From Nitrosopumilaceae archaeon (lineage in GTDB: Archaea > Thermoproteota > Nitrososphaeria > Nitrososphaerales > Nitrosopumilaceae), in NCBI GenBank assembly GCA_965200155.1, contig CBDATR010000010.1, forward strand, positions 32,001 through 96,000: a stretch of 64,000 bases of DNA. Reading direction: 5' to 3'. Position 1 is the first letter of the stretch. Each line of letters opens with the position of its first letter. The notes beneath the pieces were generated by a model. It searched no databases. It was not told where the DNA came from and worked only from the letters and a program-made list of their open reading frames with translations. Made by a program: the position numbers and the translations under genes. Positions 3,375 through 53,724 of this stretch are shown piece by piece.

Positions 3375-3466
3375 GTATGAGTTCACCTGTGTCTAAATTT
3401 ACGCACAACTGATCGCGACAGTTAATGTGATTTGTGCACAAGATTCCGGAAGACGTGAACTCATAC
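3375..3466 (-). mobile_element. MITE-A copy (left arm of composite)
   Basis: Canonical 92 bp. The left flank CAGTCGAC recurs only after the next copy, at 3705-3712. Confidence 0.97.
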
Positions 3467-3585: not shown

Positions 3586-3704
3586 GTATGAGTTCACCTG
3601 TGTCTAAATGGAACGGGTCATTCTATAACTGATCGCGACAGTTAAAGAGTAACCGGTTCTTTTGTGCACAAGATTGGAACCGGTTCCAAGACGTGAACTC
3701 ATAC
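3586..3704 (-). mobile_element. MITE-A variant (119 bp) with three cassette replacements
   Basis: TIRs intact. Three internal segments are replaced (+9, +10, +8 bp). Confidence 0.95.
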
Positions 3705-7124: not shown

Positions 7125-7994
7125 CAAGAATGGTTTGTTCCTGGAATTGACAAAGTGGCGCCCTGATCTGGAGTGGATGCGCGAGTTACCCTCTAACTAT
7201 GGTCGGGGTGCCATACTACAGGCGTCTGTCGCGTGCAGACGCGCGTACGAGGATCATTCTAATTACATGCCACACCGGCGTGACTGACAGAATCATACTA
7301 TCATGTGTAAGACCACCAATCCGTCGCGGTGAGTTCGAGTTGGACCTGTGCAGTTTTGGTGTGGGGAGAACAACCAAACCAATCGATCATTCCTTGGACA
7401 TGCGCTCATTCAGGATAGTGGAACGAGTAACCAAAGTAGGGGTGCATCTGGGATGGTATTGGGCAGTCCACTGACTCCATTCAGGATAGTGGAACGAGTA
7501 ACCAATAGTAGGGAGCATCAATTCGAGATTCACATCAATATACGGGAGAAACCATCGACCGGCGTTGTTCGCGGCGTGGATGTCGGCGGGAAACATCTAG
7601 CTGTAACAGCTGACACGAATGGCATAACGATGATTCCCAACATGAGACATCGTTCCATATTGCGGGAGATTAGCGCACTCCAGAGTATTAGAACGCGAAA
7701 GGGCAAGCGCAGGAAGCGAAAGATTGAGAAGAAAATCATTCAATTACGACAGAAAGCCAACAACATTGCGAACGACTCCATGAATAGAATGGTCCACACG
7801 GTCACCAAAGGTGTGGACAGGGTAGTACTAGAGGATTTATCACCTATATCAATGACCAGACATGGCGGGAACCACAAAATAACAATGAACCGTTCCATGC
7901 GCGAGAACCGGGTAGGCGAATTCCGCCGGAAAGTAGTACAAAAGTGCGAGGCACTGGGGATTGAATTGGTGGCTGTGCCAGCGAGATACACGAG

Positions 7995-8014
7995 GGGGCG
8001 GTTTACCCGCCCAA
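7995..8014 (+). repeat. Micro-hairpin insertion D2
   Basis: cgag[GGGGCGGTTTACCCGCCCAA]cgag, splitting the YT|SQTC motif. Confidence 0.9.
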
Positions 8015-8165
8015 CGAGCCAGACCTGTCACGTGTGTGGAAACGTTGAGATAAATCACGATCAACTAGGGACACTTTCAATATGTAACCAGGAATTTCAC
8101 GCCGATATCAACGCGGCGTTTAGTAACCGGTTTCTCTGTATGGGGCGGCAGAGCGTGTCGTCCGG

Positions 8166-8185
8166 GGGGCGGTTTACCCGCCCAA
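8166..8185 (+). repeat. Micro-hairpin insertion D3
   Basis: ccgg[GGGGCGGTTTACCCGCCCAA]ccgg. Confidence 0.9.
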
Positions 8186-8275
8186 CCGGAGGCGTCAGGG
8201 CAGGAATAATGGCGACAATCCAAAGCCATGTACTGCCTAGGAACGAGGTGCCATGAAAATCATAGTCAAAGACTT

Positions 8276-17962: not shown

Positions 17963-18054
17963 GTATGAGTTCACGTCTTCTGTAATCTTATGTACAAATC
18001 ACATTAACTGTCGCGATCAGTTATGCGTAAATTTAGACACAGGTGAACTCATAC
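17963..18054 (+). mobile_element. MITE-A copy
   Basis: 92 bp, TSD ATCGTTTA. Confidence 0.97.
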
Positions 18055-18094
18055 ATCGTTTAAGCCGTCCCGGACTCAGTGACGCTTATTCCTG

Positions 18095-18186
18095 GTATGA
18101 GTTCACGTCTTCCGGAATCTTGTGCACAAATCACATTAACTGTCGCGATCAGTTGTGCGTAAATTTAGACACAGGTGAACTCATAC
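18095..18186 (+). mobile_element. MITE-A copy
   Basis: 92 bp, TSD TATTCCTG. Confidence 0.97.
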
Positions 18187-29849: not shown

Positions 29850-29957
29850 ACTATTGTGTACACACTTCCTCCATAAATACAATGGGAAAAATAGGCACAG
29901 CTAAAAGCGACTAGTATAGTACGCGCCTCATGATTAATCGACTAGTTTTACAGGCTA

Positions 29958-31230
29958 GAGTTTGTTGTGTAACTGACTTTGACAGAATACAGGTTCCCTA
30001 CGTCGTAATCTACGTTGCTGCCGCGTCCACCCACTCGTTGTAGTCGTATGTTATCCCATTTCCGCGCCATTAATCCGTGCCCGAATAATCGTTTGAACGG
30101 GAACCGGCTCTATGATTATCCATCGCCTGTTGTACCCTTTTGTCGCCTTCCAGTACTGCTTGTTTTTGGCCTTTTCCTCATCAGAGAGGCGGAAAATGGG
30201 CGATTCCGGACTTCCTCCAAGTCCCCATGAGTCGCCTTTCCTTTGGTGGAATTTAGCTAAAGTGGAATGGTTGTCCGGATTCGATTATGACTGCACAATT
30301 TCATGTTATCCCTGGACGCGTATGCGTCATCTGCAAGTAATTCCAGATTAAATGCGCGCTTCTCATCAATATTAGGTAAGGGGGACACACCGTTAGTCAG
30401 CACCTTTCCGGGTGGTGGCTTATCTGTTGGTCCTGCCAGAGATGGCAACTGTTGCAATGTATGAGTTCACGTCTTCCGGAATCTTGTGCACACATCACAT
30501 TAACTAGAACAACCTGTTCCATCAGTTGTGCGTAAATTTAGACACAGGTGAACTCATACGTTGCAATGGGTCCGGAACTTTCCAATTCCAGGGTGTGCTC
30601 CCTTTCCTGTTGTGGCTCTTCTGCATATGAGCCCAGTACTGCATTGTTTAACATGCGTGTATCCCCAACCCACTCGCCGGTAACCATAAATGCATATGCT
30701 CTCCCAGTCCGCGAGCACTGATGAATCCGCGCCTCTTTTTCCATTTGCCCTAATCCACTCACCGCGATTCAAGGCTGGTCGAGTCCACAATCATTGGCCC
30801 TCGTCAGCTTTTTGTCTGTGCCGACGATCATGTCATTCCCCTTGTTAATGTCAAGATCTTTTCCGCGTCTGTAGTGGAGTAGTGCGGGGTTTGATGCCTT
30901 CCAGTAGTCCTGCGAGGAATCCGGATACCTGCCTGTATCTCATACCTAATGTCGTTCTCAGTGTCATGTAACATGCCCACGACATACTGGTAGGGGGCAC
31001 CCTCCTTGTTATGGTTAGCCTCTTCAATCCCATGCATGGTTAAAGCCAAATAGCATTCCGCTGGACGTACTTGGCATTGTCGGTGAATATCATCAAGTTT
31101 GTTTAAAAAATCTCAGCTATTAATGCTTGGATCCAATCTAGTAATCACTATGACAGAATAAATAAAAATACTCAAACCGTTTCTCACATACATTTTTAAT
31201 CTAACTTGTTTGGAGTTATGCAACAAACTA
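29958..31230 (-). mobile_element. Degenerate IS5-family (IS903-group-like) element, copy 1
   Basis: TIRs (T/G)AGTTTGTTG(C/T)(A/G)TAACT; fragments GEWIR, VTGEWVGD, LADDAYAS. No TSD. Confidence 0.85.
30459..30559 (+). mobile_element. MITE-A variant (101 bp) with one cassette replacement
   Basis: TSD GTTGCAAT. The empty site is visible in the second IS copy near 59383-59390. Confidence 0.97.
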
Positions 31231-31274
31231 AGATATACAAAGGGTTTAATTCGGAACGTACAGATAGATTCCGG

Positions 31275-53235: not shown

Positions 53236-53327
53236 GTATGAGTTCACGTCTTCCGGAATCTTGTGCACAAATCACATTAACTGTCGCGATCAGTTGTGCG
53301 TAAATTTAGACACAGGTGAACTCATAC
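53236..53327 (+). mobile_element. MITE-A copy
   Basis: 92 bp, TSD CGCAAGGA. Confidence 0.97.
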
Positions 53328-53632
53328 CGCAAGGATTCGCTGACCGGATGCTCTCCGGAAGAGTTCACTTGGATACTGACCAGATTCAAGGAATATGTGG
53401 AATCTCTGGAAGGTGATGATACACGACGATTCCTAGAGATTGCAAATGATCGCGTACATGTTAACAAATTTCCAATTCGCCACCTGCTCTTAGTTACACT
53501 GATACACCTGCGCTGCAATACAAAACAGGAGCTGCTAGCAGCAATACTCAAGATAAATCAATCAAACATATGCAGATATATCCAGTTTACAAAGCGGGGT
53601 ATGATCAAGATACTTCCAACAGCAGATACAAT

Positions 53633-53724
53633 GTATGAGTTCACGTCTTCCGGAATCTTATGCATAAATCACATTAACTGTAGCGATCAGTTATGCGTAA
53701 ATTTAGACACAGGTGAACTCATAC
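53633..53724 (+). mobile_element. MITE-A copy
   Basis: 92 bp, TSD GATACAAT. Confidence 0.97.

Follow-up and report, generated by a model that had tools for sequence, protein, structure and literature searches.

The 15-nt cassette at positions 30506-30520, which forms the centre of a MITE copy, is probably the diagnostic centre of a derived, IS66-mobilised MITE subfamily that had a single origin and was spread by transposition and ectopic gene conversion. The first-pass annotation had described this copy as an independent fourth instance of a replacement cassette. The site is indeed a fourth one with a founding event of its own, carries a distinct sequence and never occurs together with the other cassettes; an event proper to position 30459 is however not supported, given the occurrence of the identical 15-mer at the identical site in 66 of the 551 well-formed copies of the genome and, with one mismatch, in 2 more. 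The 15-mer centre is a marker of a derived 101-bp MITE subfamily, and the copy at 30459 obtained its cassette through transposition or as a copy made from another MITE, not in a fresh event. Either route may apply, i.e., arrival as a 101-bp element or conversion in place. As a subfamily marker, the instance gives a more modest practical result than a fresh event.

The window, i.e., the whole stretch of 64,000 nucleotides that was analysed, is part of contig 10 of an assembly of 2.38 Mb (46.6 % G+C, 51 contigs). The host is a sponge symbiont whose DnaK protein groups with those of Nitrosopumilaceae archaea (88 % for the best match), and the sequencing runs containing the window are sponge metagenomes. 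The 12-nt MITE terminus occurs 28 times in the window against an expected number of 0.26. Anchors taken from the reference copy at 3375-3466 were used to locate the copies genome-wide and returned 551 well-formed elements, 92-130 bp in size and non-coding, 325 of which are surrounded by a perfect 8-bp target duplication. The same 12-nt termini also bound elements of 1.65-1.7 kb, one of which bears an intact 501-aa IS66 transposase ORF (contig 12, 14365-16017; E 9.5e-40 against PF03050). The family shows the features of the MITE class, namely termini in common with an autonomous element, a duplication of fixed length (8 bp), small size, lack of coding capacity and high copy number, and it appears to be an IS66-mobilised, non-autonomous relative of an IS66-family (ISBst12-like, single-ORF) element. 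Save for one 22-nt partial match, the MITE was not found in the 30 relatives searched. Nested and head-to-tail partial copies occur genome-wide, and within the window MITE copies form close pairs at 17963-18186 (40 bp apart) and at 53236-53724 (about 300 bp apart). The features relevant to the copy under study are the following, S1 to S4 being the four cassette sites of the MITE.

3375-3466, plus strand: reference 92-bp MITE without cassette, 12-nt perfect terminal inverted repeats
3586-3704, plus strand: 119-bp MITE copy with three cassettes, S1 at 3610-3624, S3 at 3646-3660 and S4 at 3676-3687
29957-31231: repeat of about 1.17 kb with about 28 genome copies, hosting the MITE; no long ORF in the window copy
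30099-30113, plus strand: cassette-like near-palindrome, fixed among the copies of the host repeat and differing from the 8-nt core by one mismatch
30451-30458: left 8-bp target-site duplication, perfect, with its right copy at 30560-30567
30459-30559, minus strand, opposite to the reference: copy of the centre-cassette subfamily, 101 bp long as against 92 bp for the plain MITE, with backbone haplotype C/C
30506-30520, minus strand: 15-nt near-palindromic centre cassette (site S2, type a) replacing MITE positions 40-45 (6 nt)

Besides the replaced centre, a single base distinguishes the 30459 copy from the reference. The replacement of the 6-nt palindrome at the MITE centre had been correctly recognised in the first-pass annotation, whose interval of 30505-30521 adds the flanking T and A to the 15 nt. 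These two bases also enclose the first cassette of the 3586 copy, as had been noted, and in both cases they belong to the MITE backbone. The reported match between the reverse complement of the 15-mer and that cassette (3610-3624) was reproduced at 12 of 15 positions. When 15-mers outside MITE copies were considered on both strands, 72 of 4,654,518 reached at least 12/15 to 3610-3624 (1.55e-5). Since this background is so low, the likeness is significant and not due to chance, and the S2 cassette and that of site 1 in the 119-bp form appear to be homologous.

Most paralogues of the 29957-31231 repeat are uninterrupted at the MITE insertion point, and the insertion at 30459 is therefore younger than the host repeat family. 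No paralogue of this repeat carries a MITE at the same point, while two bear a plain MITE 12 bp away in the opposite orientation, which represent independent insertions. On contig 34, the paralogue of 30380-30640 (about 102277-102498) shows a target duplication of about 36 bp around a foreign insert of about 36 bp, which is located at the point of the window's MITE. Contigs of three sponge-metagenome runs from two studies join the flanks of the 30459 copy with no MITE between them, and these may be paralogues of the 28-copy repeat; as the flanks are part of this repeat and its other copies are uninterrupted, such joins were rejected as a population test of the locus. No contig bridges the MITE at the 30459 locus in those three runs.

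The states of the four sites among the 551 copies are listed below.

S1, MITE positions 25-30: cassette in 15 copies
S2 (centre), positions 40-45: consensus 6-mer in 424 copies
S2, positions 40-45: 6-nt point variants in 41 copies
S2, positions 40-45: 15-mer identical to 30506-30520 in 66 copies
S2, positions 40-45: one-mismatch forms of the 15-mer in 2 copies
S2, positions 40-45: a different 13-mer in 18 copies
S3, positions 52-56: perfect 12-nt palindrome in 42 copies, plus 4 variants
S3, positions 52-56: 15-mer in 5 copies
S3, positions 52-56: 18-mer in 4 copies
S4, positions 72-75: 12-mer in 8 copies
S4, positions 72-75: 20-mer in 2 copies

Cassette-less copies account for 407 of the 551 and cassette forms for 144, and the length class of 101 comprises 69 of 606 terminus pairs. 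The S2 centre cassette has the same orientation in 68/68 copies and the reverse orientation in none; two further carriers of the 15-mer were found among MITE copies failing the well-formedness filter. The 119-bp three-cassette form is present in five identical genome copies. All cassettes are near-palindromes of 12-20 nt in which a few kinds of arms surround one and the same self-complementary core of 6 nt (window 3652-3657). Their sequences vary around this common core, in agreement with the variation among cassettes previously reported.

Backbone variation was then analysed in 545 copies, as 6 of the 551 were dropped for backbone length anomalies. Two C/T sites at MITE positions 32 and 65 (e.g., window 3406 and 3439) flank the centre and are linked to each other (r2 0.38), whereas D' values of the centre cassette to these sites are 0.03 and -0.05. 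The haplotypes of the centre-cassette copies (CC 18, CT 7, TC 6, TT 34) show the same pattern as those of the cassette-less copies (CC 125, CT 31, TC 41, TT 210). Both C/T sites lie in the same 6-nt context, and all four combinations are present in every cassette class; recurrent C-to-T change specific to this context may be considered for them. The 67 centre-cassette copies are distributed over 31 distinct backbones, 17 of which are common to short-state copies and hold 53 of the 67. A FastTree phylogeny of the backbones with the cassette columns masked, the check that had been proposed for independence, left the carriers unclustered, the S2 state requiring 30 changes as compared with 27.8 +/- 3.3 for shuffled labels. 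This tree is however nearly uninformative and has hardly any signal, three ordinary SNPs being equally scattered on it; the non-clustering of the centre cassette alone is therefore weak evidence. For the site-3 cassette, clustering was seen on the same tree (15 changes vs 24.0 +/- 2.9 shuffled).

The centre and site-3 cassettes, whose sites are 6 nt apart, never occur in one copy (0/67 vs 6.7 expected, Fisher p 0.0008), and none of the centre-cassette copies carries a site-1 or site-4 cassette. A conversion tract bringing the S2 or the S3 cassette would overwrite the other one, which may be a reason for their non-co-occurrence; this exclusion argues against free exchange unless the tracts always span both sites.

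Duplicated loci were examined as 46 pairs sharing both 40-bp flanks, corresponding to 24 groups, and the cassette state differs within 5 of them. In two groups a centre-cassette copy is opposed to a short copy; both have the same target duplication and also share a rare variant of the backbone, at position 15 in the first group and at position 68 in the second. In a third group a site-1 cassette is present or absent. A seven-copy group with identical flanks contains six copies with the 13-mer centre and one with the site-3 palindrome and a changed marker 25 nt further, and the copies of the remaining group are distinguished jointly by the site-3 cassette and the two C/T sites, a stretch of at least 34 bp. 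Marker changes between duplicated loci extend over at least 34 bp in one case and at least 40 bp in another. Such in-place differences are what ectopic gene conversion among resident copies leaves behind. They may alternatively be due to independent insertions at the same point of paralogous hosts, an explanation less apt for the two centre-cassette groups because their rare backbone variants are shared. Perfect target duplications, own to each dispersed copy, surround 39 of the 67 centre-cassette copies. The subfamily has thus been amplified by transposition and exchanged by conversion, and it is not simply clonal. Annotators should then be cautious, as MITE length classes need not be clonal lineages.

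The cassettes are found beyond the MITE. Their hosts include the four MITE sites, an IS66 transposase gene, tnpB and at least 3 other families, and at these sites 4-8 nt were replaced by 12-16 nt. Within this single archaeal genome, over ten sites in mobile elements unrelated to each other carry a 12-16-nt unit. The 10-nt core was counted 113 times in the genome against about 2 occurrences expected from length alone; 50 of these lie in well-formed MITEs and 63 elsewhere, the latter nearly all in other repeat families, while outside repeats the 10-mer is near chance (about 5 unique contexts vs about 2 expected). Three unrelated repeat families share a unit of 15-16 nt including the core, and the context of the S2 13-mer shares 14 nt exactly with another family. 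Divergent relatives lacking the cassette exist for two of the further families. In the 55 distinct contexts where the 8-nt core occurs, exact identity continues past it two to three times more often than a simple random model predicts, whatever the length considered; 4 additional bases, for instance, are common to 77 pairs vs about 33 expected by our own arithmetic.

In the IS66 element, a 13-nt cassette is present in 40 of 72 copies and 7 nt occupy the same place in the other 32. The site lies inside the transposase domain, and the cassette shows one orientation and one junction in 40/40 copies. An empty copy has the intact 501-aa ORF, while filled copies, as read by eye, acquire a stop codon inside the cassette.

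A further cassette concerns the tnpB region of the window, which comprises three features.

7348-8256, plus strand: degenerate tnpB open frame of 302 aa with OrfB_IS605 and Cas12f1-like TNB domains
8119-8134, plus strand: cassette of 16 nt in place of 8 nt at the N-A-A-x-N-I motif of RuvC-III, with a frame shift of +8 nt
8165-8180, plus strand: hairpin downstream of the motif, short-tipped, most paralogues having a cassette-type tip longer by 6 nt (alignment read by eye)

The weaker candidate indicated at 8122-8135 by the first-pass annotation proved to be real, the replaced block being 8119-8134. The suggested alignment with intact homologues was carried out on 15 of 30 fetched loci, i.e., the window's own and 14 from five sister genomes. 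In all 14 intact or near-intact TnpB homologues the sequence N-A-A-x-N-I-L occupies the same place and is flanked by the same DNA, whereas in the window the motif (D-x-N-A-A-x-N-I) is cut after N-A-A by the cassette. The cassette with its frameshift, or point variants of it, occurs in 37 of 38 local paralogous segments; the exception is a paralogue on contig 34, which is 8 nt shorter and reads N-A-A-W-N-I-L. The Pfam TNB match extends over 2-58 of 60 in the window ORF as compared with 2-60 of 60 in a sister genome, and in TnpB-like nucleases of solved structure the equivalent residues align with the motif. The window tnpB is a relic of the TnpB family (IS200/IS605 accessory nuclease). A second variable place occurs about 60 nt upstream of the motif (about 8060-8085), where cassette-type blocks differ among paralogues when read by eye. 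A scaffold for the guide RNA of TnpB would be encoded in this 3' region of tnpB, so that the cassette-type variation found there may involve RNA structure.

Several explanations of the cassettes other than the spread of a derived subfamily had to be weighed. The long forms might represent the ancestral MITE, the 92-bp form having arisen by hairpin loss, or the likeness between cassettes might be a chance effect among ordinary indel variants. The cassette forms do fall into discrete length classes and palindromes are prone to deletion, as this explanation would have it. The polarity was assessed on 22 other elements with MITE termini outside the filter, 18 of which are older divergent relatives, 10 of these 18 being clearly alignable. 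The short state was found at S1, S2, S3 and S4 in 18/18 divergent relatives, so that the cassettes are derived; moreover, the short segments are uniform across hundreds of copies. Chance is in turn contradicted by the 12/15 likeness against a background of 1.55e-5, and by the density of the 10-nt core, which reaches 47.5 per Mb here, an enrichment of about 20-fold against the 400-kb sample of a sister genome; the core was not found in 400 kb sampled from each of two congeners. Taken together, these data make both versions highly improbable. The refuting possibility that had been raised earlier, an ancestral longer subfamily, is accordingly correct as to the subfamily and not supported as to its ancestry.

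A self-standing, very small mobile element, comparable to the small dispersed repeats of Nostoc and inserted afresh by an enzyme, would account for the presence of a 12-16-nt unit in at least 4 unrelated repeat families, for the independence of the cassette state from the MITE backbone, for the three cases of duplicated loci differing by the cassette alone and for arms shared beyond the 8-nt core two to three times over expectation in the 55 contexts; the 30459 copy may then record its own insertion. We consider this unlikely, as each site shows one orientation and one junction (68/68 at the MITE centre, 40/40 in IS66), which copying by homology fits better, and the core is near chance outside repeats. 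Furthermore, no candidate enzyme emerged from the 87.6 % complete assembly, where a search returned no Y1/HUH transposase (PF01797), no C5 methylase and no small GIY-YIG nuclease. The single GIY-YIG match is a 532-aa frame, probably UvrC, and the sole reverse-transcriptase match, at 22300-22781 of contig 50, is split by a stop codon. The cassettes could otherwise have been kept for a benefit to the elements, either as a binding site or as a stronger hairpin aiding transposition, their recurrence reflecting selection among copies. Cassettes do offer longer self-pairing: in the 119-nt form the S1 cassette is predicted to pair with that of S3 over the dyad, and the fold reaches a z of -4.8 against shuffles as compared with -2.7 for the plain form. 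The almost constant association of the S1 cassette with S3 (12/14 copies) fits this pairing, and private changes per copy (0.52 and 0.34 in cassette copies vs 0.82 in plain ones) fit a recent success. However, the centre cassette, predicted as a 6-bp stem with a 3-nt loop atop the MITE central stem, brings no gain in stability, the 92- and 101-nt single strands having an equal minimum free energy of -15 kcal/mol. The unit is also present in dead genes, where it creates a stop codon or a frameshift, the cassette forms are a minority (144/551) and the same letters at unrelated sites are left unexplained, so that selection seems to us as improbable as insertion by an enzyme.

Cassettes might also simply replace hairpin tips, as 3 of the 4 MITE sites hold a local inverted-repeat axis; this idea was discarded because at least 3 were also reached by 51 % of 20,000 random placements. 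No cassette lies in the 10-bp stretch at positions 58-67, which is the MITE's best local palindrome. The S1 cassette, by our own count, is only an 11/15 Watson-Crick mirror of the S3 cassette, and simple local templating therefore does not readily explain it.

According to the preferred reading, a derived subfamily of one origin, the founding step would have been a single complex deletion-insertion at the MITE dyad centre, after which cassette-bearing copies would have multiplied by transposition while ectopic gene conversion moved the cassette onto any backbone. We tentatively suggest, as a possibility falling somewhat short of a probable one, that founding events were short patches templated from another cassette-bearing repeat via a few bases of microhomology, self-complementarity favouring the re-annealing. 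The single orientation per site and the unit common to several families hint in this direction, while the junction identity between donor-like flanks and MITE flanks amounts to 2-4 nt and may be due to chance. A donor of the 15-mer was searched outside well-formed copies: six hits at no more than 2 mismatches were obtained, 2 in filtered-out MITEs and 4 unrelated vs about 4 expected. The lack of a donor and the shortness of the microhomologies weaken the templated-patch step. Two possible sources were rejected. A tnpB segment resembles the S1 cassette at 13/15 (one family, 6 copies), which is within chance, and the CRISPR array of contig 9 shares just a 7-nt word with the cassette. This array, which starts at about 71010, is very long, one 22-mer of its repeat occurring at least 288 times at regular spacing, and more blocks are present at about 80655 and 86141. 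A footprint of transposon excision found no counterpart in about 50 terminus pairs of 120-400 bp inspected by eye, none of which turned out to be a MITE interrupted by foreign DNA at one of the cassette sites. Host letters at the cassette sites are deleted, not duplicated.

A bolder and rather doubtful extension would place the unit, an asymmetric near-palindrome of 12-16 nt, among the smallest mobile-like sequences, and the first in an archaeon, overwriting bases in transposons, including the catalytic motifs of TnpB and of the IS66 transposase, and then spreading by homology. If the hits on catalytic motifs are not due to chance, the unit might be a means of disabling transposons, employed by the host or by the transposons against each other. 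Transposon biology mostly concerns elements of at least 100 nt with identifiable enzymes, and the spread of short sequences by templated patch repair, biased conversion or an unknown enzyme can be tested in this genome, where about 550 near-identical targets are easily scored for their cassette state.

The cassettes were finally compared with known systems. Elhai et al. reportedly described in 2008 small dispersed repeats (SDR) in Nostoc punctiforme and its relatives as hairpin-forming units of 21-27 nt, often nested in MITEs or other repeats, which are said to replace host letters with no target duplication; we know of no enzyme responsible for them. The cassettes resemble SDR in being very short, hairpin-forming, placed in unrelated contexts, nested in repeats and substituted for host letters with no target duplication. 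They differ in length (12-20 nt, with a between-family unit of 15-16 nt, as compared with 21-27 nt), in their host, a Nitrosopumilaceae archaeon instead of a Nostocaceae cyanobacterium, and in being almost confined to mobile elements, with a single orientation per site and a visible spread by homology. For the cyanobacteria it considered, a published study reports no SDR-like repeat outside the Nostocaceae (PMC5861425). As to ordinary IS66-family MITE subfamilies, the 101-bp form is similar to them for its 12-nt termini, 8-bp duplication and dozens of dispersed copies. Their usual markers are however point changes and simple indels, whereas here four sites within 92 bp each acquired a related near-palindrome that is also found in unrelated elements.

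Quasipalindrome template-switch mutations, which Ripley as well as Lovett and colleagues are said to have studied in bacteria and phage, reportedly replace several bases in one event and raise self-complementarity. The site-1 cassette, which mirrors site 3 across the dyad and occurs almost only together with it, recalls such mutations; on the other hand, the letters gained do not correspond to a neighbouring arm in reverse complement, and the same letters appear at unrelated loci. For the centre cassette, neither a local nor a genomic template was found. Like REP/REPIN sequences, the cassettes are short palindromic repeats evolving within a genome, but unlike the REP/REPIN-RAYT system they lie within transposons instead of forming extragenic singlets or doublets, and the 87.6 % complete genome gave no match to a Y1/HUH gene (PF01797). 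Ectopic gene conversion among dispersed repeats is a general mechanism, consistent with duplicated loci distinguished by the cassette, with or without flanking SNPs; it accounts for the spread within a family and not for the first appearance in a new one. A narrow literature search returned no paper dealing with cassettes of this kind or with the MITEs of thaumarchaea from sponges. The nearest described counterparts of the cassettes appear to be SDR and quasipalindrome mutations.

In sponge metagenomes from two other studies (three runs), the summed contig depth over the MITE (30433-30596) was 30-100x that of the flanks, and this depth indicates that the MITE is abundant in related populations also. 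In the same metagenomes, base-form MITE centres appear as loose ends.
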